DNA from: an uncultured bacterium
Lineage (GTDB): Bacteria; Patescibacteriota; Patescibacteriia; CAIQCM01
Direction of reading: 5' to 3'
NCBI GenBank assembly: GCA_963708045.1
Contig: OY970181.1
Coordinates: forward strand, 971,042 to 1,035,041
DNA length: 64,000 nucleotides
Shown here: piece by piece, positions 6,374-63,285 of the stretch
How positions within the stretch are numbered: position 1 is the first letter of the stretch
Layout: the number at the start of each line of letters is the position of its first letter
Made by a program: the position numbers and the translations under genes
The notes under the pieces: model-generated
Told to the model about the DNA's origin: nothing
Seen by the model: only the letters and a program-made list of their open reading frames with translations
Database searches by the model: none

Positions 6374-6622
6374 CTAATCTTTTTTTAAACCACGCAATAT
6401 AAGAAGACCGGAGGTAAGAATAAAAATCTCTTGAATAATCAAAACAGCAATCTTCCGATTCTCAAGATGTTTAAAATAGTCCGGAGCTTCTTGAAAAACG
6501 TACCCTGTGACATTATCGGAGCGCCATTCGTCGTTCCATACCTCTTCGTGGCGCGAAAAATTGAACCAAAGGATACCAACCGTAAGAACAGCGACAACTA
6601 GGGATGGTGTGAGTTTAAACAT
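6374..6622 (-). CDS. hypothetical membrane protein
   Basis: 82-aa ORF with one TM segment; first gene of a five-gene small-ORF cluster. Confidence 0.35.
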   Translation of the reverse strand: MFKLTPSLVVAVLTVGILWFNFSRHEEVWNDEWRSDNVTGYVFQEAPDYFKHLENRKIAVLIIQEIFILTSGLLILRGLKKD

Positions 6623-6623
6623 A

Positions 6624-6947
6624 CTATTTTTTTAGATTTTTAGCATTAAGGTAGTCACGAAAAAAGAAACCAAGCAGAATCAGGGCAACGGATTTTGCGT
6701 TTATAGCAATCTCTGAAAAGAGCTTAGAAAGTGCACGTACCCCTTCGGTATCAGGAAGGATGTGCTGTGTCACCCCAGCTAAAATAACAAGAACAAGAAA
6801 GGCAATCAGAGCAACTGCCAAAATAATCATCAAAATAATCTGAATAATAAGGAGCCATGTTTCAAACCATTGAGACCTTCGCCATTCAGGGAGGTCTGTT
6901 TCTGGGATACTATCAACGATCGTTGGTCTCACCTTCTTTTGAGACAT
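6624..6947 (-). CDS. hypothetical membrane protein
   Basis: 107 aa with two TM segments; separated from its neighbour by 1 nt. Confidence 0.35.
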   Translation of the reverse strand: MSQKKVRPTIVDSIPETDLPEWRRSQWFETWLLIIQIILMIILAVALIAFLVLVILAGVTQHILPDTEGVRALSKLFSEIAINAKSVALILLGFFFRDYLNAKNLKK

Positions 6948-6950
6948 ACA

Positions 6951-7169
6951 TTACAAGCGGCGAATATCAATAACGTATTTCTGATTTCCTTTTTCAAAGG
7001 TTACACTGTTTCCATCCTTCGCTACATCCATTAACGCAATGCCCTTTTTTAGAACTTCGGCTAGATCATTTTCCGGGATATTCAATTCTCGCGCGACTTT
7101 TTTTAGTCGCGCGAGTGCGCCATTCCTGAACGTGACGCTAAATTCATCCTGTTTTTCTTCATCTGCCAT
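6951..7169 (-). CDS. hypothetical small protein (paralog of the 7468-7713 product)
   Basis: Shares the pattern V.F.NG..L..LKK....L with the ORF at 7468-7713. Confidence 0.35.
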   Translation of the reverse strand: MADEEKQDEFSVTFRNGALARLKKVARELNIPENDLAEVLKKGIALMDVAKDGNSVTFEKGNQKYVIDIRRL

Positions 7170-7183
7170 ATTGATAATCGCCT

Positions 7184-7465
7184 TTATTTAACAATCTTAT
7201 CGGCTAATTTTGTAACTACAGAACTAAGGAAACTGGTAAAAAGTAATACCGCAATCGTCCCAATTATCCAAAACAACTTTTCTTTTATCACTCCCCAAAT
7301 TAACGACTTGATTTCTGTTTGGAGCGGTACAGAGTCTTTTACCGCCCCGCAAACCTTACAATCAAAATCCTTTCCCTCAAATCCTTTTCGGAACGTTTCA
7401 AGATCATCAATCCTTTGTAGGTTTGTATTGGCTTGTAAATCGTCCGACTGTCGTTGAGGAGGCAT
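7184..7465 (-). CDS. hypothetical membrane protein with an N-terminal CxxC-like region
   Basis: Contains DCKVCGAVKD plus a C-terminal TM segment. Confidence 0.35.
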   Translation of the reverse strand: MPPQRQSDDLQANTNLQRIDDLETFRKGFEGKDFDCKVCGAVKDSVPLQTEIKSLIWGVIKEKLFWIIGTIAVLLFTSFLSSVVTKLADKIVK

Positions 7466-7467
7466 AT

Positions 7468-7713
7468 TTAGGAAGAAACTTCAACGGAAGGCGCCGGGTC
7501 TTTTTTTAATTTTTCTGACGGAACAAAATTTCCCTTCCCATTACTTATTGGCTTCCCTTCCGCTTCTGAAATTATGGATAACATAAAACTAAGAGCCTCG
7601 CTCTCACCTTTTAATGCGTAGTCCTCGACTATTTTTTTTAGTGCCAAAACATGGCCGTTATCCATTTCAACCGTTAACTTACCATTTCCAGGATCGGTTA
7701 CGTTTATTGACAT
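7468..7713 (-). CDS. hypothetical small protein
   Basis: 81-aa ORF packed 2 nt from the next gene. Confidence 0.35.
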   Translation of the reverse strand: MSINVTDPGNGKLTVEMDNGHVLALKKIVEDYALKGESEALSFMLSIISEAEGKPISNGKGNFVPSEKLKKDPAPSVEVSS

Positions 7714-7810
7714 ATTTTCCTTATTATTTTTTGTAGATTCTTATATCATACCTATCGTTATGAATACCGTCAACACTAAAAAAATTAGCTTCATATCTAC
7801 CCTTAAACGG

Positions 7811-7999
7811 CTAGTATCTTTCCGAGCAACAAAGAAAAACATACCCTATCGTTGTGCCGGTTGTTCCAATGAAAAACAAACCACCAAGATAAGCCCATGA
7901 ACGCTTCTTATTAACGGATTTGTTCGTTCCGGCGATTGAACGCTTGAAGTGCGTCCAAAAGTTCTCGACGCTGTTGTAATAGAAATAGTTGTGGATAAA
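7811..7999 (-). pseudogene. remnant of an IS1595/ISXO2-like transposase (C-terminal about 60 aa only)
   Basis: Minus-strand translation gives YYNSVENFWTHFKRSIAGTNKSVNKKRSWAYLGG. This matches the conserved N-T-I-E-G/N-F-W-S-L-L-K-R-G-I-x-G-T block near the C-terminus of IS1595-family transposases, and there is no intact upstream ORF. Confidence 0.4.
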
Positions 8000-8001
8000 T
8001 A

Positions 8002-8241
8002 TTATTTGAATTTTTTCAAGCCAAGATCCTTATCATTAAAATGTGGTTTAGTAGGAGAAACTAAAATCAATCCAAAGACGAGGGTTAACAATTTTCCGGC
8101 GTCATAAATAAACGCATCCGTATCGGCAAGCGGTAAAAAGCCGAGATATGGTTTGTTTATGTCCATTATAAAACTAACCAAAAAGATTGCGAGAAGAATT
8201 AAGCCAAACGAACGGCGAATGTCGTATTTCTTTTGTTCCAT
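8002..8241 (-). CDS. hypothetical membrane protein
   Basis: 79 aa with two hydrophobic segments. Confidence 0.3.
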   Translation of the reverse strand: MEQKKYDIRRSFGLILLAIFLVSFIMDINKPYLGFLPLADTDAFIYDAGKLLTLVFGLILVSPTKPHFNDKDLGLKKFK

Positions 8242-45579: not shown

Positions 45580-46398
45580 TTATTTCCTTTTTATATTCAA
45601 AAAAGCAAATTGCTTTTTTTCTTCATTATAAAGCGAATTAATGCTTACGCCAGAAAGATTTTGACTAAAAATTCTGACATTATCCAGCTGACCGACAAAA
45701 CTCGTACAGCACATACCTCGGCCAATCCAAGGCGCGATGTCGTTTCTATCGGCATAAGAATATGGTAAGGAAACCGTTCCGACAAGATGACCATCAATGT
45801 AACCGGAAAACAAATGACCAGTAACGTCAAAAACACCGGCAACATGATGCCATTTTCCGTCGTTTGCTGTTTTTGTTCCACACGTTGTCTCCGTCCATGC
45901 GTCGGTGCCGCCAATAAGAAAACCAATTACTCCCGTGCTGAGTCCAAACCGATATCCAACACCGGAACCAGCATTGGCAATGACGTACATTTGACCGTTA
46001 ATGCTTGTTGTTTTTATCCAAAACGCGATTGTAAAATTAGTATTAGAAATTCCTAAGCTCGATGCCGGATTAACATGATCCGAGCCAGTAAAATTCATTG
46101 AATATTTTGAGCCAGAACCAAAAGTATCAGTACTCCAAGTTGGACTGCCAGAAATAGACGCGTTGTTTCCGTTTCCTGAGGAGTCAACAATAACACTTCC
46201 CGAACCTTCTTCAAAATCATAAGCCGCGACAAGCGCCGAGCCCAGGCTATTGTATAAACTTTGTTCAAAGGAAGCGCCGGAGGCAATCCTGGCTTTGTCT
46301 CTCGTCGTTGTAAGCGAAACCACGGCGATAGTGGAAAGCAGGCCGACAATAGCAATGACGACTAAAAGTTCAATTAGAGTAAAAGCTTTTGATTTCAT
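45580..46398 (-). CDS. type IV pilin/pseudopilin-like protein with a C-terminal concanavalin/LamG-like domain
   Basis: Prepilin N-terminal methylation motif KAFTLIELLVVIAIVGLL. The C-terminus has FTIAFWIKT...GKWHHVAGVFD...LDNVRIF, typical of LamG jelly-roll domains. Confidence 0.65.
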   Translation of the reverse strand: MKSKAFTLIELLVVIAIVGLLSTIAVVSLTTTRDKARIASGASFEQSLYNSLGSALVAAYDFEEGSGSVIVDSSGNGNNASISGSPTWSTDTFGSGSKYSMNFTGSDHVNPASSLGISNTNFTIAFWIKTTSINGQMYVIANAGSGVGYRFGLSTGVIGFLIGGTDAWTETTCGTKTANDGKWHHVAGVFDVTGHLFSGYIDGHLVGTVSLPYSYADRNDIAPWIGRGMCCTSFVGQLDNVRIFSQNLSGVSINSLYNEEKKQFAFLNIKRK

Positions 46399-46842: not shown

Positions 46843-47157
46843 CTATTTGGACAAGATTACGAGCAAAAAGAATACCACCAACCAGAAAAAAAGCCAAGAG
46901 AAGGTGTAGATAAGCATTTTCACAGCCTCTTTTTTGGCACCGTCCAAATACATTAAAATCGGCTTGCCAAAGACGAGCGAGCTAGTTATGCCAGCCGAGA
47001 AAACAAAAAGCAATAACATCATCACCCCAGTAAGTGCGGTATCAACTTTTCCAAAAAGACGACTGCCGTTACTCATTAATTGCGAAACCAAAAATACATA
47101 AACAACAACTCCCAACGAATGCAACAAACTTTGTTTTATTAATTCAAATTTTTTCAT
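46843..47157 (-). CDS. hypothetical membrane protein
   Basis: Three TM segments. Start taken at MKKFELIK, because the longer ORF would overlap tRNA-Gly. Confidence 0.4.
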   Translation of the reverse strand: MKKFELIKQSLLHSLGVVVYVFLVSQLMSNGSRLFGKVDTALTGVMMLLLFVFSAGITSSLVFGKPILMYLDGAKKEAVKMLIYTFSWLFFWLVVFFLLVILSK

Positions 47158-47179
47158 AGTTTTTATTTGCGGATCTCTT

Positions 47180-47250
47180 AGCGGGATACGAGAATCGGAC
47201 TCGCGTCTCATGCTTGGGAAGCATGCATACTACCATTGTACTAATCCCGC
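47180..47250 (-). tRNA. tRNA-Gly (anticodon CCC), with an atypical T-loop
   Basis: Reverse complement GCGGGAT-TA-GTAC-AATGGTA-GTAT-G-CATGC-TTCCCAA-GCATG-AGAC-GCGAG-TCCGATT-CTCGT-ATCCCGC-T. The T-loop lacks the canonical TTC. Confidence 0.55.
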
Positions 47251-47397: not shown

Positions 47398-47754
47398 TTA
47401 TTCAATTTCAAGCTTAATCCTTATCGCTTCCAAAATTAAATTTAGATCCCTCATAACATCATTATTCCAGAATCTAAGAACCGTAATATTTAATGAGTTT
47501 AAAAATAGCGTCCGCTTGTTGTCATAATCAACATCTTCAATATGCTGTGAGCCATCAAGCTCTATAGCCAATTTTCTCTCGCGACAATAAAAATCCAAAA
47601 TATATGGATCAAGGCTATATTGTCGCTTAAACTTTAAACCAAAAAATCTCCCGCCTCTTACCCTATTCCAAAACAATCTTTCTGCTTCGGTTTGATTATG
47701 CCGCAGTTCGCGACGAAACGATAACAATTTTTTTGAATTTGCTATTTGTTTCAC
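47398..47754 (-). CDS. DUF559 (Vsr/restriction-endonuclease-like fold) protein
   Basis: ELRHNQTEAERLFWNRVR...YILDFYCRERKLAIELDGSQH...TVLRFWNNDV. Confidence 0.75.
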   Translation of the reverse strand: MKQIANSKKLLSFRRELRHNQTEAERLFWNRVRGGRFFGLKFKRQYSLDPYILDFYCRERKLAIELDGSQHIEDVDYDNKRTLFLNSLNITVLRFWNNDVMRDLNLILEAIRIKLEIE

Positions 47755-47849: not shown

Positions 47850-49334
47850 TCAACTTCTCTTCAAAATTCTAACAATCCCCTTTTCCGCATCAACTTCAAC
47901 AAGGTCGCCATCTTTGAATATCTTTGTTGCAAATTTAGTACCAATGATACAGGGTATCTTTAACTCGCGCGAAACAATGGCGGCGTGGCAAGTGATTCCG
48001 CCTTCGTCGGTGATCACGGCCAAACTCCTTCTCATTGCTGGGACATATTCCGGAGTTGTCATCGCCGTCACTAATATTTCACCATCCTCCAATTTGCTAA
48101 TTTCTGATGGTGTCAAAAGAATTCTGATCTTGCCGGTGGTTATTGCCTGAAGACCTCTTGAACCAATCTGCCCTTTAACAAACTCGGCAGAATCATTTTT
48201 GGGCGTAGCTTGCGCCACAAAGGCCGCGGATTTTTCTTCGTCCCACATTTCGCAAACACCATCTTTCCAATGCATTATGAAAGCGCCATTTATTCTTTTT
48301 TCCGCAAGCGCGATCAATTTATCGGCCTCGTGTTCATATTGTTTGATTTCATCAAGCACCAGATACTTTAAATGAAGAATTTTTACGCCGAGCCGTTCGG
48401 CAATCTCATTAATGATCCGGTGAAAAACTTCGTGTGCTTGAAAAGTAAATTCTTTACGCTCGTCGGTCATTAAAGCCAGAGTGTGTGTTACTTCTACCAA
48501 CCGTCTGATCGGCGCGGTGATTTTATATTTATCGTAGATCGCGTTTTGCTTTTTTAAAATGTTGTCTTTGTAGAAAACAATTTGTTTAATGCGTTCTTCA
48601 ATCATCACCCGATCTTTTGTCGCCAAAATATTCTTTATACTTTTTAAGTAGTGTTCGCGGTCATAAAGAGCCGGGCCGTCGTAACCAAACGGTATCCAAT
48701 AATATGCTTGGACGAGATTCTTTAGTTCTCGTTCAATTTTTTCAGGAATACTTTTATCAAGATTACATCCGCTATCAATCGTCTTTATGGCAACTTCAAG
48801 TATTTCCCTTTCTTCGTTGGAACTGAACGAAGGAATAGAAGGCGTAAGCAATGTTGCAATATCTTCGGTGCTAACTAAAAAAATCTCTGATAATTTCTTT
48901 TGCAAATAAGCATGTAAATAATCTCCCCCAAAGAACCAGGGCGAAACATTTAATTGATCATGCGCGATCCAAGCACCTTCAAGATCCTGATACGCTTGAA
49001 ACAGCTTTTCAATCGTGAACTTAGAAAGATCACTTTTTCTAAGACGACGAGAGAATTTTACCAATTTTTTTCCGGCGACTTTTTGTTTTTTGTAAAGAGT
49101 CGGTATGTAAGACTTATCATTGATCATTCGGTCGCGCAAAAATTCACCAACAGCATCCCATTCCGTTTGCAAATAAAATGACGTGTAGCTGACATTGTGA
49201 ATATACTGCCAAATTTCATGAGGGCACGTACCGTGAATCTCCCGTGTTTTCGGTTGCGACTCACTACATCCGTTCCAGTGTGCCGGGATCGGATGAATCT
49301 TTCTAGATCTGGGTATAAAATATTTTTCCGACAT
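47850..49334 (-). CDS. array paralog A1: Trp-containing N-terminal region of unknown function plus a C-terminal PEP-utilising-enzyme swivel (phosphohistidine) domain
   Basis: The C-terminus ...[75 protein letters not shown] aligns to the E. coli PpsA His-domain block [48 protein letters not shown]. Start taken at MSEKYF, 2 nt from A2's stop. Confidence 0.8.
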   Translation of the reverse strand: [494 protein letters not shown]

Positions 49335-49335
49335 A

Positions 49336-50739
49336 TTATTGTATTTTTTTAACAATTCCTTTAACCGCATCAACTTCAACAAGATCGCCGTCTTTAAGCA
49401 CTTGCGTTGCGATCTGTGTGCCAATAATGCACGGCTTGCCCATTTCCCGTGCCACAATCGCTGCGTGCGAGGTCACCCCGCCGCGATCGGTTACAAAGGC
49501 CGCCGCTCTAGCCATAGCCGGAATAAAATCGGGCGTTGTTTCGGGTGCGACCAAGACCATCCCCTTTTTTACTTTGACATTATCCGCCGGAACTAGAACA
49601 ACCGCGACAATGCCCGTTACCAAGCCCTTGCATCCAATATTCCCCTTAAATTCTTTTACCTCACTACCCAGAACAATCAAACCAAGATCTTTAAGTTGTT
49701 CCCGCAACTCGTCACCAACGGAAATATGGATCACTCCGTTTTCTTTATACATCCCAAAACCTTTTTGTCTTTCTTTGATCTTAATATTTATGCCGTCGTT
49801 TATGCCACGGTCAAGCGACTTGATTTCTTCGGTCGTAAGAAAAACAATGTCATCGTATTCCAAATCAAATTTTTTTGCGAAATTAGTCAGCGCCGTGCGG
49901 AAAGAATATACCAAATGAGCCGAACTCTGGGCACAACCCAAACGTTGTTTTGTTGTTTCCGCGACAATGTCAAAAAAATCTTTGATCTCATCGGGAACAT
50001 TGGTTTTTTTAGCCTCAACAACGTTGGAATGTCCAATTGCTTCAATAAATTTATTCATCGTCCGTGCTTCGCCCCAAAAATGATGCGTTCCGATATATTC
50101 TGTTTCTTTTTGATATTTTTCCATTGCTCCAGCTAGTTCAATATTTTTTTCTTTGATCACGGCCAGATTTAGAGGCAATTTATTTTTTTCAATTTCTTGC
50201 TTAAATATAAAAAGCTTCTTTTGATCTTCAGTCAGCATATTCGCGAGCTGGGGTATTTTAGAATTTAAAACATCAACCGAGATACCGGACTTATCCGCGT
50301 AATTTTTTAAATATATATCAGCCGCGTCGCTAACGGCAAAACATGCCATCCAAGGAAAACGGATGCGCTTTATTGCTTCCAAACTATCCATAAGCTCGGA
50401 GACCGTCGCATCCACCCCAAGCGAATGAGAAAGTTTTAAACACTCATTAGCAAGAACCTCGCCATAATGAAGAATTTTTTTCGCTGTATCAGATTTCCCT
50501 TCTTTAAACTCCTTCGCCACCAAGTCGCGAATAAACGGATACGCGCCGTTGTTTGGAAACATGTAATTTCCATCCAAAGCAATACCCGAGATGGCGTCTG
50601 GTGTTACTCCGAGCTCACGCGACTCGGGCGTATCACACCAATCCATCCAAGTTTCATACTCAAGTATCGGCGCTATCCAGCGCCCTAATTTAAAATATTC
50701 GTTCTTGTTAAATTTTCGCGCATCCATTATTTTTTCCAT
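49336..50739 (-). CDS. array paralog A2 (TSH variant)
   Basis: ...[75 protein letters not shown]. The linker [13 protein letters not shown] resembles PpsA DIFSLTNEEVQEL. Confidence 0.8.
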   Translation of the reverse strand: [467 protein letters not shown]

Positions 50740-50744
50740 AAAAA

Positions 50745-51818
50745 TTATTTTATCTTTCTAACGATCCCCGTTTCCGCATCAAGTTCAAGGAGATCACCGT
50801 CTTTAATCACCTGCGTGGCAAACTTAGTGCCGACAATGCAAGGTTTTTTAAGTTCGCGGGCAATAATAGAAGCATGACAGACGACACCTCCTTCGTCGGT
50901 AATAATTCCAGCCGCCTTCATGCAAGCAATCATCATATCCGGCTTGGTCATATCTGTTACGATGATCTCCCCCTTTTCCACGTTGTATCCATTTTTAATT
51001 ATTTTTTCATTATCGCTTTGGATTATTACTCTTGCCCTGCCTTTAACCACGCCGCCAAAAACCGGCGAACCTTTAATTACACTTTTATCCTTTGGTAAAA
51101 CCAAATCATTTACTTTGTTCCATAAAATTATGGCGTCGTTTTCTATAAACAACCTTGATTGCTCCCCCTCTCTTAAAAGAGCATAACCATTTCTACGTTT
51201 TTTTATTTCAACTTCCGCAACTTTTCGTCCTTCATGTAACAAACCAGTCATTTCGTCAAATGAGTAAAAATAAAGATCTTTTTGTATATCCAATCCGTTT
51301 CTTCGCGCAATTTTTTTTAAAAATTTTCCGAACACAATATCAGCAAGAAGAGGTAATAATTTTCTTAGCTCTAACCTAAGGGTTGCTATTTTTTCTAAAT
51401 CAACATTCTCTTTTGTTAGCTTGCGCGTTTTGGAGTCTTCCGCCCTCGTATAAAGTTCGCTGTATTTATTTAATTCCGTCCGAAAAATATTAAACAAACT
51501 CACCAGCTCTTCTGTGTTTAATTTTTTAAAATCAAATTCTTTGTATTTATTAAATATGTCATCCACCTCCTTAATTATTTCTTGCGATTCTTTTTCAAAT
51601 GAAAAAATATTTTTCTTTTTTAAAAAATAATCAGGACCGGTTTCTTCATAATTTTTTGCAGAATCGTTCAAATGGTAAAAATGAAGCATTCCATTTTTAT
51701 AGAAAAACAACGTTGACTCACCCAGATAATGCTCGCTATCGGTCAACCAAAAAAGAGGCATTATGGTTTCCCTAGCCCAAAACTCAACACTATTTATTAT
51801 CGGCAAATTAGATTTCAT
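50745..51818 (-). CDS. array paralog A3
   Basis: ...[75 protein letters not shown]. Confidence 0.8.
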   Translation of the reverse strand: [357 protein letters not shown]

Positions 51819-51836
51819 TTTTTATAACTACCAACC

Positions 51837-52898
51837 TTAACCCTTTTTCAAAATTCTAACAATCCCCGTTTCCGCATCAACTTCCACAAGATCGCCGTCC
51901 TTAAAAACTCGAGTCGCGATCTTCGTACCGATGATGCAAGGTTTTTTAAGTTCGCGGGCGACGATGGCGGCGTGCGAGAGAACGCCACCTGTATCGGTCA
52001 CAAAAGCAGCGGCTTTTTGCATAAGCGGCAAATATTCTGGACGCGTCATTCCGGTAACGAGAATATCACCATCTTTAAAATTTTTTGCGTCGGAAGGATC
52101 ATGAATCACCCTAACAATTCCCGATACTTTTCCTTTAAAAGCCGCCGTCCCTTTTATTTCTTCTTTTTTTGATTCGATAAAAACAGCTTTCTCAATCGTA
52201 TTAACATTATTATCGGTAACAACACTCATTGCTCCGTCAATAAAAAGGAGCGCACTTTTTTTAAATCGCTTTTCAAGAACTTCTTGCGAAGGAAAGCTCT
52301 TCCCCGAAAGACAATCACCAAGCTCGTCTTTGGTAAGGTGCAAAATATACTTCGTCGGATAATTTATTTTTTTGCCAACTTCAGCCGCATATTTGTTCAT
52401 AAACTCTTCGGTCTTAGCAAAGACCGGCTCGGCATAAAGACGAGCCGAATCAAGATCGGACAAAAATTTCCCCAGAAATTCTTTTGGAAGATAGTCTGTA
52501 ACAAACTTGACATTAATATGCGGCTTATAATATGCATCTTGCGCCGCCCAAAACCTATTGTAGATATCATTGGTTATTTCCGCGTTCTCGGATTCGGCAA
52601 TTAGGTCAAGAATGTCCTTGGTCTTATTTCTGAAATCAGCAATTACTTCATTTGCTCGGTTAGGCTTCTCAGTCCACTCTCTGGCCAGATTTTTGCCAAA
52701 AGTATCTCGTTCATGTTGCATACCAAAACAAGAACTTTTTCCCTCTTCAAAAAAGAAAATAGTTTTATGCAAAAAAACCTTGCCATTGATAATATAGTCC
52801 CTGGTATAGCGCTCTCCCCAATAAGAACATGTCAAAAAACTCCAACGGCCAGCCCATATTTTTATCCAATCGCTTGCTTTAAAATCTGCTTGGTTCAT
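51837..52898 (-). CDS. array paralog A4 (TSH variant)
   Basis: ...[77 protein letters not shown]. Start taken at MNQADF, 5 nt from the methyltransferase stop. Confidence 0.8.
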   Translation of the reverse strand: [353 protein letters not shown]

Positions 52899-52902
52899 AA
52901 AC

Positions 52903-53601
52903 TTATAGTGAGAGAGTATAAATAGATATGCGACCCCGTTGTAAACCGTCCTTTGCCTCGACACTAAACCGTTCAACTACCTTGTACCCGTGTTTCTTTG
53001 CTTGAGTTGCTGGATTATTAAGCGGTCCCGCGAGATGAAAATAGGGCATCACGATCATTGCATCTTTTTTTAGATATTTTTTAGCCGAGTCTAAAAACCT
53101 ATGGATTAGCGACCCGCGACTTATTCCCTTGATAGGCGTTGATATTTGTTCATCTATCGTTCCATCTGAAAAAAACGGGTGATTGAAGACGATGAGATCA
53201 AATTTTCCCGTAACATTTTCAAACAGGTCGCTCGCGACGACCCGCGCCACAGCACCAAGAGAATATCTTTTTACATTCTCGTTGGTATTTTTTATCGCAG
53301 AAGAGGAAATATCAGCGAACATTATTTTTTTTGCACCATATAAACCCATTACCACCCCTTGGATACCAGTCCCTGACCCCATATCCAGAACATCTCCATT
53401 CCGATATAATCCATTATTAAAAAACAGCCATTGGGCGAGATCAAGCGCGGACATTATATCGGGACGAAGAACAAAAGAATTAACTTTAAAATTTTTTAGC
53501 TGATGACCAGCTCCAAGAATAATATCAGTTATATAATTATCGTGACGATGCGCCTTAATCTGTTTATTAAATTGTTTTTGTTGTTGTAGGTTTAGTTTCA
53601 T
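52903..53601 (-). CDS. small class-I SAM-dependent methyltransferase (MTS / RsmC-like small domain) embedded in the array
   Basis: SAM motif I VLDMGSGTGIQGVV, acidic motif II (FADIS), and motif IV FNHPFF (an NPPF/NPPY-type variant). Confidence 0.6.
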   Translation of the reverse strand: MKLNLQQQKQFNKQIKAHRHDNYITDIILGAGHQLKNFKVNSFVLRPDIMSALDLAQWLFFNNGLYRNGDVLDMGSGTGIQGVVMGLYGAKKIMFADISSSAIKNTNENVKRYSLGAVARVVASDLFENVTGKFDLIVFNHPFFSDGTIDEQISTPIKGISRGSLIHRFLDSAKKYLKKDAMIVMPYFHLAGPLNNPATQAKKHGYKVVERFSVEAKDGLQRGRISIYTLSL

Positions 53602-53603
53602 AA

Positions 53604-55100
53604 CTATTTTCCTTTATTAACAACCCTGACGACCCCCTTATCCGCGTCCACTTCAACCATATCCCCACTTTTAAATATCTGTGTCGCTACCTTCGTACCG
53701 ATAACGCAAGGTTTTTTAAGTTCGCGGGCGACGATGGCGGCGTGGCAAGTGATCCCACCCTCATCAGTCACGAAAGCGGCTGATTTTTTCATTAAGCTTA
53801 AATAATCTGGCCGCGTCATACCGGTAATGAGTATATCACCATCGTTAAATTCGCCAGGGTTATGCGCGTCCATAACCACCCGGGCAACGCCCGTAACCTT
53901 GCCCTTAAAAGCCACCATCCCTTTAATCTCGTTCGTTTCCCCTGTTGCAAGTGGCGGGCTGATCTTTTTATAAAGTGCCCCTGCCTTACTACCAGCCAAA
54001 CACATTTCTTGACCAAAAATATCTCTAAAATATATGAATTCTTCCTTGCGCTCATTAACCGCAAAATCTTCTATGGTTTTTTTACCAGAAATAATCTCAT
54101 CCAGCTCCCACGGCAGAAGCATAATTGCATCCTCATAGTTAAGATGCTGTTTATCGCAAACAAATTCCAAGTGTCTTCCAAGATAATAGTTGGCGAGTAA
54201 GTTATATTCCTTACGGCGATCCACCCACCAACCGATTTTTCCCAGCCACAAAACCTTTTCATAATCATCTGGATCAAATATGGCTTGTTTTTTTATCTGA
54301 TTGCAGGCTTTTTTATGGTTGGCGGCGAAATCACTTAAAGTCTCAATTTCTGCTTTGTGGTCAGTTTTTATATCAGCCAAAACTTCAAACAATTGCTCGG
54401 CAAAAAATGAGACCGGCAGCGCAGAAATATTTTTATAGTTGTTCTTTATCCAGTGATATTCTTGTTGAATATTTTCTAGAGCGGATTTAATTTCCTTATT
54501 TGCCAACAAGTCTGATGTTGAAGAAAATTTAGTATCTATTAATCGGAGGGCGAGTTTTAATAATTCCTGACGATATCGATTTATAAATGTCTCCCCATAC
54601 TGTTCGGCGAGAATACGCAACTCCTCGCTACAGTACGGGTATTTTTCTTTCATCTCGTTAAAAAACCGTTCACCGTAAATCAGGACACCATTGATTGTAA
54701 CGGCGGGAATGTACTCGGCATCGTAGACGCGAATGAATTCGTCAAAATTTTGGTGAAGATATTCTTCACCCTCTTTCTTAACGAGTCCGATAAATTTTTT
54801 ATACTTATCTTCGGCTTTCAGAAAATCGGCGTATATTCTATCTAAAATACTCCGATCGCTCATCAATTTTAAAAACGAGGCATAATACTCCTCTTCGTCG
54901 GCCAGATACCCACCAACCGATCCGGCTTGGGTAATATGGAATCCGCAAAAAGTTTCCAAAATAAATTCCGGATAGCGTTTATATACACCCTCAGTCCATT
55001 GTCTAAGACCAAAACCAATAACATACGGGGTCATGCTCGAATTTTTAATAAGCCAATTTTTAACTTTAGCAATGCGTTCTTCTATAGTCAGCTCTTTCAT
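53604..55100 (-). CDS. array paralog A5
   Basis: ...[78 protein letters not shown]. Confidence 0.8.
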   Translation of the reverse strand: [498 protein letters not shown]

Positions 55101-55678
55101 AATTCCATCTTCTTTAATTTATTCTCGGCAATTTGCTTAAGCTTTGGATCAAAAAATGTTGCGAGAGTTTTTTCAAGCATCTCTTTTATATAATTTTGAT
55201 CCTTAATAAGCGCGCCCATTTTCTTTAGCCGTTCGGTGTTAAAGCGATCCATACAATCTACGTCATGGAATACGCGCTTATTTTCCGAATCATAAACTTT
55301 ATTAATGTCAGTACTTTCAAGCTGATCGGCGTCATGCATACTAATTATCTCAACAATCTCCAATGACTTTGCTGGATCATATCCCACAGCACCAAGAATC
55401 TCCTTGGCAATTTTGGCGCCAGCGAGCATATGCACGAGCTTGCCGTTCTTAACTTTTTCCGTACCAGTAATGTATTTAAAATGCTCGGGCAGGATCGCCG
55501 AGTGGCCAATGTCGTGCATTATTGCAACGGGAATAAGAATATCAAAATATTTCGGATCAACATTGTTGACAATAAATTCAACAACCTCAAGCGCGTGCGT
55601 GTCGTCCCCCGGCCGCCCCTCTTTTAGAATCGGTTCAGCTTTTTCCCAAATTTTTAGATATTCATTAGGTATTCGCAT
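55097..55678 (-). CDS. HD-domain phosphohydrolase embedded in the array
   Basis: H...HD motif (AIMHDIGH) and downstream HDAD; ATGA overlap with A5. Similar in size and architecture to the HD protein at 483-1034. Confidence 0.65.
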   Translation of the reverse strand: MRIPNEYLKIWEKAEPILKEGRPGDDTHALEVVEFIVNNVDPKYFDILIPVAIMHDIGHSAILPEHFKYITGTEKVKNGKLVHMLAGAKIAKEILGAVGYDPAKSLEIVEIISMHDADQLESTDINKVYDSENKRVFHDVDCMDRFNTERLKKMGALIKDQNYIKEMLEKTLATFFDPKLKQIAENKLKKMEL

Positions 55679-55680
55679 AT

Positions 55681-57171
55681 TTATTTTATTTTTAATATCG
55701 TAACAATTCCTAGGTCGGCATTCACTTCCACCATGTCGCCGTCTTTAAAAACCTTGGTCGCGATCTTGGTGCCGATTATGCACGGTTTTTTCATTTCCCG
55801 AGCAACGATCGCGGCATGCGAGGTAATCCCGCCTTGTTCCGTTACGAAAGCGGCTGCTAATTTCATTGCCGGCACAAGATCCGGATTGGTCGCGATGGCA
55901 ACAAGAATATCGCCAGCAACAAGTTTATTAATGTCCGATGAGGTATTTACAATTTTTACTCTTCCCACCACTTTTCCAACGCACGCAACTTGTCCTTTTA
56001 GCTCGGTAATATTTGAATAGTCCTGCGCCCTAAGCGTGTCTTCAAATTTAGCACAATCTTGGTTAATAGCGATAATGTCTAAGCCTTTTTCAGCATAATA
56101 GACACAATGTTGTGTCCGTTGTTCTAAAATTTTCTTTAGCTCGCTTCTTACCTCCCCCGCCTTTAAACTATCAATGACTTCGTCCGGCATCATAAACCGG
56201 CTTTGCATTATTGTTATTCCCAATCGCTTAGAAAGCTCGGCAAACAAAAAATCCATCTTGTAAAACCACAGCAATTGGACGCGGCGGCGGTATGCCTTGG
56301 TAAATGAAAACTCCGCATACTCCAAGAAAAGTTTCTTTTCGGACGAAGTTAATTTTAATTCGTTGGAATATTTTTCCGCGAGTGCTTTGTCGTCGTCCCG
56401 TTTTTTCTGTTCGGTTTTTAACAATTCTTGCGGATCGCCTTTTTTAATCAAATCATAAACTGCTTCGCGATATTCTTCTGTCGTCGTTCCTTCTTTTCCA
56501 ACCAGCTGATGCATGAAATAAAAATATTTTTTATGGTGTTCCGCAAGAGCTTTTTCAAAAGCAGGGTCGTTTTTACTTTTTAAAATCGCCAGATTAATGA
56601 GCGATTCATATTCTTCCTGAATAAAACTTTTTTCGTTGGAAAAGCTTAGCGCCGCCAGTGCTTTATTCGCCTCTCCTTCATCGTTGATCTTTTTCATCAA
56701 GACATCTTTAAGATACGCCGTAAAATGACCGTGGAACATATCAACCGCGTTCGGCAACCAGCCCCAAACGTAAAATTGGGTGTGAACTTTATCCAATTGC
56801 AAATAAAAATCAGCCAGATCGGAATTACTTAGCTTGCATAATTTCTCCAAAGAAATTTTTAAAGTTTCCGCCTCCAACCTGTCGGCGGTTTTTCTGATAT
56901 TAACATTGATCTTCTTCCCAAGATCTTCATTAATAATTTTGTCTAAAATTATCTTAGAAACATTTTCCGAATCCTTGTCGCCATAATAAAATTTTAAATT
57001 ATATCCGGAGTAAACAGACATTACCTTTTTATAATTTATTCCAATCGTTTTTTCCAAATCATTCACAAAAGACGAAAGCCAGATCTGTGAAAACTGAAAA
57101 TCTATATTAGGTATATCCTCAGCCAAAATCCAAGCGTCGTTGTCGTTCAAATATTTTGGTTCGTCGTTCAT
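55681..57171 (-). CDS. array paralog A6 (TSH variant)
   Basis: ...[77 protein letters not shown]. Confidence 0.8.
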   Translation of the reverse strand: [496 protein letters not shown]

Positions 57172-57173
57172 AA

Positions 57174-58193
57174 TTATTTAATTATCCTTACAACCCCTTT
57201 CCCCGCGTCAACTTCCACAAAATCGCCGTTCTTAAGAATTTGAGTGGCAATCTTGGTGCCAATAATGCATGGCTTTTTCATTTCGCGCGCGACGATGGCG
57301 GCGTGGCAGGTGATTCCGCCTTCGTCAGTCACGAACGCCGCCGCTTTTTTCATCGCCAGCAAAAAGTCCGGCGTTGTCATTGGCGCAACAAGAATATCGC
57401 CTTCTTCCACTTCTTGCATATGACTTTGTTTTTTTACAATCCGCACCGTGCCGCGGACTAAACCAGCAAAGGCGACCTGCCCCTTAAACTCACTAACATT
57501 TTTAATATGCGCCAAGCCTTCAAAAATATATTCGGGATTTTCTTTGGTAAAATCATCTAACGTTCCCAGGTACGATTTTACGCCATCAACGAGCAAGAAT
57601 GATTGAAGACGTTTATCCAAAATTTCTTTTGACGGCAATTTTTCTAATTCATTTGGCAAAACAACGCCCGCCTGTTCTAGGGTGAAGCCACCGAGTTTAG
57701 CAATATTCTTTCGGACAAAGACATCGTTATCGGCAAAAAAATCACCCATTTTTCTTGATTCAACGGCCATTGCTTTGGCCTCGTCGGAATTTCGCTCATC
57801 GGTTCCGACGTAAAAGAAAAGCGTGCCCCATAAGGCGGCATTATAAACTAGTTCCGTATAAGCTTTTATTTCCGCCAATGAATTTAAATATTCTTTTTGG
57901 TGTATCTTTTTTAGCTCGTCAAGATAATCTTTATATTCATTGAGAATATTTTTTAAAAATCCTAACCCTTTTTTGTTTTCTTCAAAAAGCTTATCCAAAA
58001 ACCATTGAAAAGCTTTTTTATGCTGCCAAATTTCCACCACGCCATCGTTTACATAATGCGCGATGAATGGAAGGTACGGATTGTCCCAGCCAATTTTTTC
58101 TTTAATAAGAACGGTGAGCCCTTTGGCCCACAACCCTTGCATAAACAAGGTCGTATCTCTAGAAAAATCTTTGGTGAATTCAATTCGTTCCAT
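57174..58193 (-). CDS. array paralog A7 (short form, about 340 aa)
   Basis: ...[75 protein letters not shown]. N-terminal motif [28 protein letters not shown]. Start taken at MERIEF to avoid a 92-nt overlap with A8. Confidence 0.8.
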   Translation of the reverse strand: [339 protein letters not shown]

Positions 58194-58203
58194 ATTAATT
58201 TGA

Positions 58204-60717
58204 TTATTTGATAATCCTAACCACGCCATTATCCGCGTCAACCTCCACAAGGTCGCCATTTTTAAGGACACTGGTTGCGTTTTTGGTACCGACAATGCAC
58301 GGTTTTTTTAGTTCGCGGGCAATTATGGCGGCGTGAGAAATTATACCACCTTCGTCCGTCACAAAAGCTGCCGCAAGCCGCATCGCTGGCGTGTAGTCCG
58401 GCATTGTCGTGATGGCGACCAAAATATCGCCTTCTTTTACCTTTGAAAGATCATTTTTACTTTGAACAATTACAACGCGACCAACCGCCTTGCCGGTAAA
58501 AGCAACTTTGCCAGCAATATTTATATTTTTTAATTCATTCTGACCGATAATCGCTTTAACTTTTTCAATTTTTTCCTTGTCGTAAAAAATATGCGAACCG
58601 TCATTTTCAAAATAATAAACATACTGACCAGAAATCCTTTGTTTAATTTCGCCAAGATCGGGCACTAATCCATTTTTCACAAAATCAACCAATTCCTTGT
58701 TTAAACAATTTGCAACCATCACCATTGTCCAGCTGTCCCCTGTTTTTTTAGATAACGCTTGCGCGATTTCGTAAAAAATTTTCCTAATACTTGTTTGCGT
58801 TTTTTTAAAACAATCCATCCGTTCTGCGCGAAGAAAACTATACGTAAAAAGAACTTCAGCAACTAATTTAAGTTCTTTGTTTTTAAACTTTTTTCTTAGC
58901 AAAGAATAAGCAAGTTTATTGCGTTTAACCTCTTCCAAAATTTGAGTTTTTTCCTTTTTCGCATCTTTGACGTTCAGTTTATTAGCTTCGTTAATAAAAT
59001 ATTTTTCGTCTAATAGCGGTTCAACGTATGAATATTCGCTATACCAAGCGTAACCATCAACAAGTTTTTTTAGTATTTTTTTATCCTTTTTACCGCTTAT
59101 TACAAAGTCATCAATTTTTATCCTCATTTTTTGAAAATCATTAAGCCGCGAAGGAGATGAAATAATCGCAAAAGCGCTAGCTGCGGCCGACGCTCCAAAT
59201 TCCTCAGAAAGAAGCTTTTGGCAATAAGGGTCTAATTTTTGTTCTATTACTGTTGGGGCGATTAAAAATTTGCCGAAATTTTTTGCAATCTCAAGCCATT
59301 GAAGATAAATTGACAAATTTTTTTTCAAATTATTTTTTGCCGCGCGGTTTGCTAATTTTACAATCTTGGACATTTCAACGATCCCAAAATTATATTCTTG
59401 CAGATGTTTTTTCCATCCGGCAAAAGTTGATAATTCATTAATGATTTTTTCGTGGCTACATTTAGTTCCAGCGTCATCAACATACATCGTTCTGCTTAAA
59501 CCATCCAAAGGTATGGTGACGCAAACGCCTTTATATACCGACCAAGCAAGTCCGCTTAATTCGTCCTTTTGTACGGCCATTGGCCGAGTAACAAATTTTT
59601 TTAGATTAGCAAAAAATTTTGGAATATCGTTTTTATCCGTATCATTATTTTTCTTCGTAACTCCAGCTTCGTAACGTCCTAAATAATTACTTTCCAAAAT
59701 TCGGACTACACCATTATCCACGTCCACTTCAACCAGATCGCCGTCGTTAAGAATTTGCGTGGCGATTTTCGTGCCGACAATGCAAGGGATCTTGAGTTCG
59801 CGGCAGGCGATGGCCGCGTGACAGGTCATACCACCTTCGTCTGTAACAACCGCGGCGGCGATTTTCATAATCGGCAGATATTCGGGATTAGTCATTTCGG
59901 TGACCACAACCTCGCCCGCCTTAAAATCTTTCATGTCAGCAAATGACAATATCTTTTTTACTTTGCCCGTAACAATACCTTTGTAAGCGATCCGTCCCTT
60001 AATTTCACCGTTCGCTTCTACCGACTGTTTTTCCAGGGCAAGATTATTTTTTAAAAGCAGGTCGTCTAACTCGCGAAGAGGGTAAATTTTTTCATTAAGC
60101 ATAACGCAACCAGCGACCCGTGCGCGGAACTTTGAAACAAATTCTTTCTTTTCTATATCAGAAAAATCTTTTACTTCACTAGGCGCAATGCAAAAAGAAA
60201 ACTCTTTTAGATCGGGGTAGCGGCGATCCCAAAATTCCGTGAGCAGCCGGCTCATTTTTTCGGTATATTTTTCCGAGGCGGCGCGATATTTAAGAATAAG
60301 CGCACGAACCTCGTCGGAAACTTCTTTAATATCCGGAACGGTAAAGACCGTGGTCATAGCCGACCACCAATCAACTAACCATTCATAATATTCGTGGAAT
60401 TCTTTAACCGTGACGATCTTTTTGTCGTGAATAAGATATGGCGCTAAATTTTTCCAATTACTATCCAGCGTCTTAACAACCAATGCCACAAAAGACGAAT
60501 CTTCGGTTAATTTATTTTTTAGCAACACATCAACTTCCGCCAATTCTTCCGGCGGATACCAAACAGAACCTTTGCGTCCAGGCGGCGGCACAATAAAAAG
60601 ATTATTTTTCACGTCATAATCCAAAAAGTTCTTCCACCCACGTCGGTCGCTGTCGTTCCATAGCAAAAAATACAGCAAGGGCTTTTCGCGCGAAAAAGTT
60701 TTTGCGAGTGTAATCAT
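58204..60717 (-). CDS. array paralog A8: a double-unit fusion (837 aa) with two swivel domains
   Basis: The internal domain ...[75 protein letters not shown] lies at about aa 255-345. The C-terminal one is ...[75 protein letters not shown]. Confidence 0.8.
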   Translation of the reverse strand: [837 protein letters not shown]

Positions 60718-60718
60718 T

Positions 60719-61750
60719 TTATTTATTTTTAATTCTCACAATCCCCTTTTCGGCATCCACTTCAACCAGGTCGCCGTCTTTAAATACTTTGGTAGCAACC
60801 CTAGTGCCGATGATGCAGGGCTTTTTTATTTCTCTTGAAATAATCGCCGCGTGACAGGTGATTCCGCCTTCGTCGGTGACAATCGCCGCGGCGCGTTTCA
60901 TTGCCGGTACAAGGTCAGGGACGGTCATCGGCGAAACTAAAATATCCCCTTCTTTAACTTTATCGGCTTCGGCGTTTAACCGAACGACTTTGACGACGCC
61001 GCGAGCAAACCCTTTAAACGCCACTCTCCCCCTTACTTCATTAGTCGCAAGCTCTTCCTTTTCTCTTTCAAATTTAAATTGCAAATTATTTTTCGCGAAT
61101 TCATTAAGGACTATTGTTTCATTCGCGATACCAGGAATATAAACCCAGGACATAAAACGTTTATTTAACAGGTCGTCCGAAATCCCGACGGAAATATCTT
61201 CAAACAGCATTGCGGCGGCTTTTTTGCTCTCAATATTCAGTACCTCGCCAATTCCCCGACGGATCGCGCGACTGCTGCTCGCAAAAAAATCATCTTTGTC
61301 ACGAACAACGAACGCCAGCGCCCGCAAATTATCGGCAAGCGAATCGTTGGTTGCGACAAAATACCAAACGGTGAAATAATCACAAGTCTCTGAAACCAAA
61401 TCAATGAACTCCAAAAGCTGTTTTTTTGTTTTAAACGGCTTGGCACCCAAATCAATGACGCGGTTATTTAGATCGTTATATTTAGATATAACATCGGGAA
61501 GAAATTTTGGGTCGCTAAGAACGCGATTTTTGATCGCATCACTCACCCAATCAAGCGACATCTTGTTCTCCCAGACTTCAATCATCCCCCGATCCATATA
61601 AAAAACATTGGGTGCTATGTAAGGATTACTCGCGCCAAGAATCTTTTTAAGACCGATAGTTTGTGACTTGAACCAAAAATCTTCCATGATCATACAATAA
61701 TCACGGGTGTAGCTTAAAGAAAATATTTGTTCTGAAGCAATATATGTCAT
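60719..61750 (-). CDS. array paralog A9 (short form, 343 aa)
   Basis: ...[76 protein letters not shown]. N-terminal motif [28 protein letters not shown] is homologous to A7's. Confidence 0.8.
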   Translation of the reverse strand: [343 protein letters not shown]

Positions 61751-63285
61751 GCTTTTTTCAAAATTTTTACAACACCACTATCCGCATTTACCTCAACCAG
61801 ATCGCCGTCGCGCAATACTCTGGTGGCGATTTTTGTTCCAGTGATACAGGGAATCTTTAATTCGCGCGAAACAATAGCCGCGTGGCAAGTAATCCCGCCC
61901 TCGTCCGTAACAACAGCGATGGCTTTTTTCATCAGCGGAACATATTCCGGTCGCGTCATTCCTGCGACAAGTATTTCCCCGTCAATAAATTTGGCATTTG
62001 AATTAACATTTAACACCACTCTAACAATCCCCCTAACTTTCCCTTTAAATGCCGGCTGCCCGTGAATAATATTTTGATTCACTCCCGAGACATGACCGTT
62101 TTTAAAATATGTATTTATTTTTTCTACATCAGAATCAATATTACAACTCTGAGCCTGAACGTTTCCTTCGTAAGGAACTAGCCATTCAAATCCATTTACT
62201 CTAGAAGCGAATTCGTGCGCGTTTGTTTTTAAATAATTAATTCCTTTTAATAGTTCATAAACGGAATAGTAAGGAATCAATTCACGCCCAACTTTTGCTT
62301 CGGCAAACATCCTTTCCGCGATCCGATAAATTATCGTCATTCCTTTGGCAAAAAAATTCTTTCTTCGATCCCGAATTTCCATAACAGTTTGCAAGTAGCG
62401 CGCAATAACCCGCTCGTTTTCTGGTAAACTACTAAGCCATTTCTCGTGCGCGGCGACAATCATTTCAAATTGAATTTTTTCCATTTCTAAAACCTGCGCC
62501 GCCAACTTAGGCTGATTAATATATTTTGCGTACCGTTCGTTTAAAACACTATCAACCTCGGCTAAGGTTTTTGCTGAGTGATAATCGGATAAAATATATT
62601 GACTCTGTTCTTTAATCATCTCCCAGCTGGTATTTTCTTTTACAAGCTTAAGAAAACTACTTAGCTGCGATTTATCAAAAGACTCAAAAGCAGGCTCGGT
62701 TGCTTTTTCCCACAAAACATCAAATTCTTTTTCGGTGATTGAATGTTTTTCTCGCTTTAAAATTTCAGCACATAATTGTTTGTCAAGAAAAACCGTAAAA
62801 TTAACAGCAGCATTCGCGTCCCACATTAGATCGCGAACTGTTTCAACAAGATAAAACAAAGTTTCCCAATTACTTTCGTTAATCAATTTATAAGTATATT
62901 GATCGTAGAGAGTATTTATTTTTTCTATATTTTCTACAAGACAATCGTTGCGGCGAGCAAAATAATTTTGATCGTTTAAATATTCGTGAAGGCCGTATTC
63001 GGCGGCAACCAAAAAATCTTCCTCGGGCAACCAAACTTGCGAAAACCCTTTTTTCATCAAAACAAGGAGACTATATCCAACCCGACCCTCATACCATTTC
63101 TTAAAGTATTTTTGGGTGTTGTATTCAGAGCCCTGCAAAAAAACAGAGTATCCATTCAAAGGCGGGTATAATTTTCCTTTTCCGACCAATTCTAAGAACT
63201 GATCGCATACTTTAAAATCAATTGGGTGGTGCACATCCAATTTTGACTTCCTATCAGATTTTTCAAATTTTTTGTCTGGTTCCAT
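61747..63285 (-). CDS. array paralog A10 (first gene of the array)
   Basis: ...[77 protein letters not shown]. ATGA overlap with A9. Confidence 0.8.
   Translation of the reverse strand: [512 protein letters not shown]

Follow-up and report, generated by a model that had tools for sequence, protein, structure and literature searches.

Genes whose products end in the phosphohistidine domain of phosphoenolpyruvate (PEP) synthase but lack its other catalytic domains raise the question of where their phosphate comes from and where it goes. A run of such genes lies on the minus strand, at 47850-63285, of the 64,000-nucleotide (64-kb) stretch of contig OY970181.1 analysed here (assembly GCA_963708045.1, positions 971,042 to 1,035,041; hereafter the window), which derives from an uncultured bacterium of the Patescibacteriota. 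We consider it likely that this array encodes eleven acceptor modules of a split small-molecule dikinase of the rifampin phosphotransferase (RPH) type, charged in trans. Each module would combine a substrate pocket resembling the rifampin-binding domain (RIF-BD) with a phosphohistidine swivel of its own. A separately encoded ATP-grasp protein of ~315 amino acids (aa), consisting of a PPDK_N domain, would bind ATP, and the swivel His of a module would then attack the beta-phosphate, so that after loss of the gamma-phosphate the His would carry one phosphate, with AMP and inorganic phosphate as by-products. The swivel would next swing back to its own N-terminal domain (N-domain), where a conserved Arg/Glu site would help to pass the phosphate to a bound hydroxyl-bearing small molecule. 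Removal or processing of the phosphate may later fall to the HD phosphohydrolase encoded here or, in related arrays, to the His_Phos_1 proteins. We infer this mechanism by analogy with RPH and with the two-component enzymes PpsAB and HpeHI. Since the N-domains belong to several old and very different subfamilies, the modules would give one charger many substrate specificities.

Composition of the module array

The array comprises twelve tightly packed open reading frames (ORFs), namely ten swivel-bearing genes (G1-G10), an HD gene, and a methyltransferase gene. Searches with Pfam hidden Markov models (HMMs) placed the phosphohistidine domain PF00391 at the C-terminus of all ten module proteins (E 1e-23 to 1e-28), and the 837-aa ORF G3 contains two such domains (E 1e-51). 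PF01326 (PPDK_N) and PF02896 (PEP-utilizers_C) had no match in any of the ten proteins, even at E 0.1. The ten genes thus hold eleven units, each made up of a variable helical N-domain followed by a PF00391 swivel. The preliminary description of this locus, made from the sequence alone, had reported ten minus-strand genes ending in a swivel His domain and devoid of PPDK_N and PEP-utilizers_C; both statements were borne out by the HMM searches. Its ten-gene array holds for the module genes, and the array itself has twelve members, because the HD and methyltransferase genes had been overlooked. The gaps of -4 to +18 nt given there are correct only when these two genes are counted, which yields eleven intergenic distances after correction of gene starts. 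Because the longest ORFs of G4, G7, and G10 each overlap the upstream gene, their starts were moved downstream, to the likely start codons ATG 58193, 52898, and 49334, respectively. Plain paralogs of PEP synthase or pyruvate, phosphate dikinase (PPDK) were ruled out, PF01326 and PF02896 being absent from all ten proteins. Promoter and terminator predictions were as frequent as in shuffled sequence and hence uninformative on operon structure.

The N-regions fall into two length classes, one of ~220-240 aa (short units G2, G3a, G4, G7, and G8) and one of ~350-390 aa (long units G1, G3b, G5, G6, G9, and G10). From the upstream end of the minus-strand array, the first gene is G1 (61747..63285), a long unit of 512 aa (497 aa from the start set by another gene caller) with a T-C-H motif at His468 (PF00391 E 9e-24), and it is followed by the short unit G2 (60719..61750; 343 aa; T-C-H, His300; E 9e-25). 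G3 (58204..60717) is the two-unit fusion and splits at about residue 343 into the short G3a (M-T-C-H, His300) and the long G3b (I-S-H, His795 of the ORF). Next come the short G4 (57174..58193; 339 aa from its corrected start; T-C-H, His297) and the long G5 (55681..57171; 496 aa; T-S-H, His452; E 2e-24), then, beyond the HD gene, the long G6 (53604..55100; 498 aa; T-C-H, His453; E 6e-25). Beyond the methyltransferase gene lie two short units, G7 (51837..52898; 353 aa from its corrected start; L-S-H, His309; E 6e-26) and G8 (50745..51818; 357 aa; V-C-H, His315; E 2e-23). The array ends with two long units, G9 (49336..50739; 467 aa; T-S-H, His425; E 4e-28), which carries the linker motif DIVFLTTEEIKSL, and G10 (47850..49334; 494 aa from its corrected start; T-C-H, His450; E 2e-25).

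The catalytic His lies 42-45 residues from the C-terminus of each unit, within the motif GGx[TLIV][CS]HAAI. It is preceded by Cys in seven units and by Ser in four, as had been counted before; the Thr then assumed in front of this residue throughout is present in eight units, its place being taken by Leu in G7, Ile in G3b, and Val in G8. The eleven swivels share 42-63% pairwise protein identity over ~115 aa, with that of G8 the most diverged (42-54% identity to the other array swivels), and their DNA forms a 239-nt repeat present in 11 copies of 63-75% identity. The G6 swivel is 66-86% identical to the swivels of its orthologs versus 49-67% to the other swivels of the window, and the corresponding ranges for G4 are 71-77% versus 53-66%. 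Because the swivels are nearer to their orthologs elsewhere than to their array neighbours, the paralogs are old by these comparisons, with no recent burst, and evolve as N-domain-plus-swivel units under purifying selection; the ongoing divergence once proposed for the array does not fit this pattern. Concerted evolution or gene conversion of the swivel segments was ruled out as well, since the swivels track orthology.

Fold and conserved residues of the N-terminal domains

Homology between the N-domains is clear by BLASTP for G2 and G4 (E 4e-28), a pair for which a shared N-terminal motif had already been pointed out, and marginal for all other pairs. NCBIfam models match the swivel of all ten proteins, with all scores far below the family cutoffs, and in several proteins the alignment reaches 60-150 residues upstream, into the substrate region of RPH, PRK06241, or PigC. 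For G8, residues 170-353 align with positions 689-861 of the 864 in RIF_Ptrans_rph, so that the alignment extends into the RIF-BD.

Structure models cover two of the eleven units, the long G6 (input: G6 and 12 orthologs) and the short G4 (input: G4, seven orthologs, and G2). The AlphaFold2 model of G6 (predicted local distance difference test score, pLDDT, 91; predicted TM-score, pTM, 0.88) found Listeria RPH-Lm as its top Foldseek matches in the PDB (5FBU, 5FBT, and 5HV1; E 1e-13; whole-protein query TM-score, TMq, 0.56); PPDK, pyruvate kinase, and Enzyme I matched its swivel alone (TMq <=0.2). RPH was also the top Foldseek match of the AlphaFold model of G4 (pLDDT 92; E 1e-10). Common to the two models are a strand-helix-hairpin element at the N-terminus and a hairpin immediately ahead of the swivel. 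Because both match RPH beyond the swivel, the N-domains are predicted to be RIF-BD-like, that is, substrate domains with the rifampin-binding fold of RPH placed N-terminal to the swivel, and the short units look in the model like a reduced RIF-BD. The preliminary reading of an RPH-type protein minus its ATP-grasp agrees with these models.

RPH-Lm (PDB 5FBS/5FBT/5FBU/5HV1) is thus the best structural match of both modelled units, and the resemblance covers a substrate domain followed by a C-terminal swivel, a Glu and an Arg in the linker region, and a further Arg at an Arg666-like spacing. RPH differs in that its one chain of 865 aa carries an N-terminal ATP-grasp, a domain missing from the window proteins. 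Sequence identity between the window units and RPH is ~16-18%, the short units are without ~150 aa of the RIF-BD, and the proteins fall outside the rifampin phosphotransferase families NF041857 and NF000283 (52-109 bits against NF041857, whose cutoff is 999).

Residue conservation was assessed in 224 units, drawn from the window and from 85 related loci, over a 170-residue stretch whose end lies 60 residues ahead of the catalytic His. Only three columns are conserved in this stretch, an Arg (69%, plus 12% Lys), a Glu (87%), and a second Arg (91%). All 11 window units carry an Arg, an acidic residue, and a second Arg; the acidic residue is Asp instead of Glu in G2, and the first Arg of G6, G5, and G10 lies 2-4 residues off the aligned column. 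Among G6 orthologs, D294-R295-R296-K297 is invariant. In a profile search, the Glu and the second Arg align to residues of RPH-Lm, and the first Arg is found ~155-160 residues before the His, the same spacing as that from Arg666 to His825 in RPH. Arg666 and Glu667 of RPH are essential for the second phosphotransfer (PMC4844700).

Linkage of the modules to an ATP-grasp gene in related genomes

Standalone PPDK_N proteins are numerous: a search at E below 1e-10 matched at least 7989 database entries. Among the best 120 listed, identity to the query ranges over 60-84% and nearly every protein is ~315 aa long; the named sources are Patescibacteria. A survey of species-representative genomes with a standalone PPDK_N as the query gave 80 loci (the genome of the window array is not among them). 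Every ORF in the 80 loci was scored against HMMs derived from the window swivels and the PPDK_N hits. Most of the loci are labelled Patescibacteria, three are labelled as archaea, including DPANN groups, and two are labelled Bdellovibrionales or Gammaproteobacteria. Of the 80 loci, 75 have swivel units, which with few exceptions share the strand of PPDK_N and lie directly downstream or upstream of it. In 53 loci the PPDK_N domain is joined to one or more units, and in the other 27 it stands alone. At least two units are present in 57 loci and at least five in 13, and 62 loci contain at least one unit without an ATP-grasp of its own. A single PPDK_N is accompanied by up to 7 units, as separate genes or as fused polyproteins, and in related loci of Patescibacteria and DPANN a conserved PPDK_N gene of ~315 aa usually stands at the head of 1-7 units. 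The largest polyprotein, a single ORF of 3181 aa (L069:81-9626), has one PPDK_N and seven PEP-utilizers domains, as confirmed with Pfam; two further single ORFs from Patescibacteria metagenome-assembled genomes (MAGs) join an N-terminal PPDK_N to five units (L063:10001-17830) and four units (L078:9995-15622), respectively.

Modules of the window's own types take part in this linkage. Only 1 nt separates an ortholog of G6 (P0008, in L004 and L005; 52% identity) from an upstream gene whose 318-aa product is a PPDK_N domain and nothing else. The 428-kb contig of L001 carries at least 12 swivel-only genes together with two His_Phos_1 genes, one LMWPc gene, and one 331-aa PPDK_N gene; L001 also has a relative of G1 (29% identity, E 8e-52). 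In L002, six modules are followed by an HD gene and then by a G6 ortholog, with a PPDK_N protein on the same contig and an ortholog of G10 (42% identity, E 3e-109). Orthologs of G6 were identified as P0002-P0014, with Paceibacterota and Falkowbacteria MAGs as named sources, and a full-database search with the G6 N-domain returned only 145 representative clusters, most of them ~480-520 aa long. Fused forms include P0147, which joins PPDK_N to a G6-type domain (40% identity) and a swivel, P0164, which joins it to two units, and P0146, a two-unit fusion comparable to G3.

Clustering of 232 N-domains extended this to most of the array. PPDK_N is fused to 8 of the 70 members of the cluster that holds G5, G6, and G10 (cluster 0), to 8 of the 33 in that of G2, G3a, and G4 (cluster 1), to 4 of the 16 in that of G1 (cluster 3), to 5 of the 16 in that of G7 (cluster 4), and to 5 of the 8 in that of G9 (cluster 5), so that each of the N-domain subfamilies of these nine units includes PPDK_N-fused members. 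These fusions and adjacencies are strong genomic evidence that modules of the window type would work with a conserved ATP-grasp, and PPDK_N genes adjoining or fused to modules are what an arrangement of one charger and many modules predicts. The earlier proposal of one ATP-grasp partner for many modules thus finds its counterpart in relatives, where PPDK_N adjoins the modules or is fused to one to seven of them; within the 64-kb window it does not, as no PPDK_N is encoded there.

Three features of the related loci deserve separate mention. Three loci labelled Woesearchaeota, Nanoarchaeia, or archaeon (L064, L065, and L082) have standalone or fused PPDK_N-plus-module arrangements, which suggests either sharing between bacteria of the candidate phyla radiation (CPR) and archaea of the DPANN groups or mis-binning. 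A 563-aa protein of L001 (L001:13402-15093) combines an N-terminal HTH_3/HTH_19 domain (XRE-type) with a swivel-bearing module, an architecture that hints at a regulatory variant. In L002 and L003, a G6 ortholog is split (L002:10001-11475 and L003:45-1519) into a 423-aa N-domain ORF and a swivel fragment of 59 or 68 aa, reflecting either a frameshift or pseudogene or a sequencing error.

Two genes are embedded among the window modules. The HD-domain protein (55097..55678, minus strand; 193 aa; PF01966 E 0.002) overlaps the start of G6 by 4 nt. Its orthologs lie inside the arrays of L002, L041, and L084 (E 1e-67 to 1e-82), that of L041 matches PF01966 at E 2e-6, and the HD-G6 gene order is kept in L002; it is a candidate accessory gene encoding a putative phosphohydrolase. 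A ~290-aa His_Phos_1 protein is encoded directly against the arrays of at least 15 loci (e.g., L001:17098-17970, L034:8692-9582, L038:8111-8974, and L062:9089-9997), and none is encoded in the window. Such recurrent phosphohydrolase-type neighbours would fit a logic in which substrates are phosphorylated and then dephosphorylated or processed. The second embedded gene (52903..53601, minus strand; 232 aa) encodes an MTS/HemK-PrmC-like methyltransferase (PF05175 E 2e-15; NF011529 E 2e-26, below the NF011529 cutoff) with a partial match to the generic PADLOC methyltransferase model mad2 (E 9e-19). It is not conserved in other arrays and is probably a passenger gene. PADLOC-DB gave no defence match for the HD protein or for seven swivel-bearing proteins, a set that did not include G7 and G8.

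Known dikinases, alternative explanations, and meaning for CPR and DPANN biology

PpsAB, CreHI, and HpeHI are two-component dikinases in which the ATP-grasp is separate from the swivel-bearing protein (PMC12167813); a swivel component without a built-in donor domain, as pointed out when the array was first described, therefore belongs to a class already on record. In RPH and in these three systems, the swivel His accepts the beta-phosphate of ATP and carries it over to a substrate held in a RIF-binding-type domain (PMC12167813; PMC4844700), and the RPH family carries a GGxT[SC]HAAI-type His motif within 50 residues of the C-terminus (PMC12167813). The window units share with HpeHI of Rhodococcus, CreHI of Corynebacterium, and PpsAB of Thauera (phenylphosphate synthase) the split layout and the order of a RIF-BD-like domain and a C-terminal swivel. 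They also resemble the H components in having the His in a motif of this type less than 50 residues from the C-terminus, with Leu, Ile, or Val in place of Thr in three window units. Unlike these systems, which consist of one H and one I component, the array brings together 11 very different H-type units; the known systems act on phenolics and are encoded in catabolic operons of free-living bacteria, whereas the module arrays occur in CPR and DPANN hosts. The split architecture is thus known, and the one-to-many array is the new feature. In the literature on CPR or Patescibacteria with PEP-utilizer, swivel, PF00391, or PF01326, we found no description of module arrays. Within CPR, the subfamilies include fused as well as split members, which suggests that the separation of ATP-grasp and modules arose there independently of the known two-component systems.

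The likeness to PEP synthase is confined to single domains. The window swivels score best against PEP synthase models and structures (models: E 1e-29 to 1e-38 for single-unit proteins and 1e-70 for G3), and the ATP-grasp of the relatives also scores best against the N-terminus of PEP synthase. Unlike PEP synthase and PPDK, the window proteins have neither the TIM barrel (PF02896) nor an ATP-grasp, and against TIGR01418 they reach 92-214 bits at a cutoff of 740. Because they lack the PEP/pyruvate TIM barrel and the ATP-grasp and score below this cutoff, the source labels of module proteins as pyruvate, water dikinase or PEP synthase are, judging by domain content, misleading.

Several observations weigh against a split dikinase charged in trans. 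HMM searches of the 64-kb window (all ORFs and the last 300 nt) and of the gene directly upstream found no PPDK_N; on a 7-kb Logan contig, the gene upstream of DivIC encodes a bPH_2 protein. Two PPDK_N loci exist in some related genomes, so a strict single charger is not universal. The N-domains of G3b and G8 are singletons, without clustered relatives among the 232 N-domains. The first conserved Arg is equated with Arg666 of RPH by spacing alone. Finally, models of the PRK08296 group (~600 aa, swivel-terminated), which we take to represent the H components, match the window units over the last ~105-145 positions alone, that is, the swivel and linker; the single-unit proteins score 49-99 bits and the two-unit G3 up to 183, where the cutoffs are 578-730.

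Four other explanations were considered. We regard it as improbable that the modules serve in biosynthesis as PigC/RedH-type ligases or activators, or that they work one after another on a single polymeric or multi-hydroxyl substrate, for instance a glycan or cell-envelope polymer; in neither case would they be independent kinases, each with its own substrate. The prodigiosin ligases PigC and RedH and the PRK06241-type 'PEP synthase-like' proteins belong to the same superfamily and have the order ATP-grasp, substrate domain, swivel; G5 (residues 252-492, against positions 637-881 of the 883 in the PigC model) and G10 each align over ~240 PigC residues, polyproteins that string together up to seven modules are reminiscent of an assembly line, and phosphatase-family genes are embedded in arrays. 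However, those enzymes are single chains, the alignments to PigC are weak and far below cutoffs (51-135 bits for this group of models at a cutoff of 1300), module order and content vary between related genomes, and the window array offers no biosynthetic gene context.

There is likewise only a small chance that the modules operate without any ATP-grasp, as transphosphorylases or with another donor (a phosphorylated metabolite, or PEP via a partner), shuttling phosphate through the swivel His. The lack of an ATP-grasp gene in or next to the array, as seen in the window and the upstream gene, would suit this idea, as would the ability of HpeH alone to transfer phosphate from 4-phosphoacetophenone to acetovanillone (PMC12167813). 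Set against it are the same module subfamilies adjoining or fused to PPDK_N in relatives, the missing PEP-utilizers_C domain that could take phosphate from PEP, and the retention of the swivel at 66-86% identity among orthologs, which fits a conserved docking partner.

It is very unlikely that the modules are regulatory or sensor proteins, or phosphorylate proteins, with a signalling swivel like that of Enzyme I of the phosphotransferase system (PTS) or the C-terminal domain of Geobacillus pyruvate kinase. Only the swivel aligns with Enzyme I (TIGR01417, 34-47 bits for single-unit proteins and 79 bits for G3 at a cutoff of 342), and structural hits are again restricted to the swivel, leaving the C-terminal PEP-binding domain of Enzyme I unmatched. 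The N-domains match the small-molecule-binding domain of RPH and not the HPr-binding helical subdomain of Enzyme I, and the Arg/Glu phosphotransfer residues are conserved. That the array is decaying, functionless debris of PEP synthase genes is already largely refuted and barely credible, since despite the many diverged copies and the one frameshift-split ortholog in L002/L003 the ORFs of all 11 units are intact and retain the catalytic His and the Arg/Glu/Arg residues, orthologs elsewhere show conserved columns, the swivels track orthology, and no unit has any trace of the PEP synthase C-terminal domain.

The array lies among genes of core function. The rest of the window, on the same strand, encodes a ClpB-like AAA+ protein, MraW, UvrABC, ZnuA, an ABC-3 permease, TGT, a DEAD helicase, FtsEX, and DivIC, and an Rfam scan of the window found four tRNAs and nothing else. 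At 0.38-0.43, the array's GC content lies towards the lower end of the values seen across the window (0.38-0.50). The accessory region suggested previously is not supported by this setting, as the flanks consist of core genes (DivIC, FtsEX, tRNAs, and UvrABC) and nothing in them points specifically to a mobile or accessory island. A DUF559 gene (47398-47754, minus strand; PF04480 E 2e-35) with a Vsr-like endonuclease fold immediately adjoins the array on the downstream side and is followed by tRNA-Gly and tRNA-Thr; a 122-aa ORF (46843-47211) overlaps tRNA-Gly at its 5' end. Just downstream of FtsE, a 272-aa protein (45580-46398, minus strand) combines a prepilin-type methylation motif (PF07963) at its N-terminus with a lectin domain of the Laminin_G_3/ConA-like kind and is a candidate pilin-like surface adhesin. 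Between mraZ and uvrC, a stretch of lower GC (6374-8241, minus strand) contains six small ORFs (72-107 aa) and none of 110 aa or more, and several of the small ORFs have hydrophobic segments.

The modules take up ~1.3% of a 1.19-Mb genome, although CPR and DPANN genomes are very small, and the PPDK_N partner ranks with the group's better conserved proteins. Given this share of the genome and the conserved ATP-grasp partner, the module system is probably important to the CPR/DPANN lifestyle. In the organism of the array, the modules would be charged in trans and act on small molecules, and their role may lie in nutrient trapping or detoxification in an episymbiont; modification of antibiotics by the modules is speculation. 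Metabolic reconstructions can go astray on labels such as 'pyruvate, water dikinase / PEP synthase', which might, for instance, be read as a sign of gluconeogenesis. More tentatively, and with somewhat less than even confidence, we propose that CPR bacteria and DPANN archaea possess a one-to-many dikinase in which a single conserved charger serves up to a dozen interchangeable modules, as arrays or as polyproteins with up to seven swivels, enabling the capture or neutralisation of small molecules of the host, a layout undescribed in the PEP-synthase/RPH superfamily. If one ATP-grasp does charge many modules, this would be a new organisational principle for swivel-domain dikinases and would provide minimal-genome episymbionts with a broad phosphorylation repertoire. 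The modules would form a natural library of small-molecule kinases, with relevance to antibiotic inactivation, metabolite scavenging, and biocatalysis.

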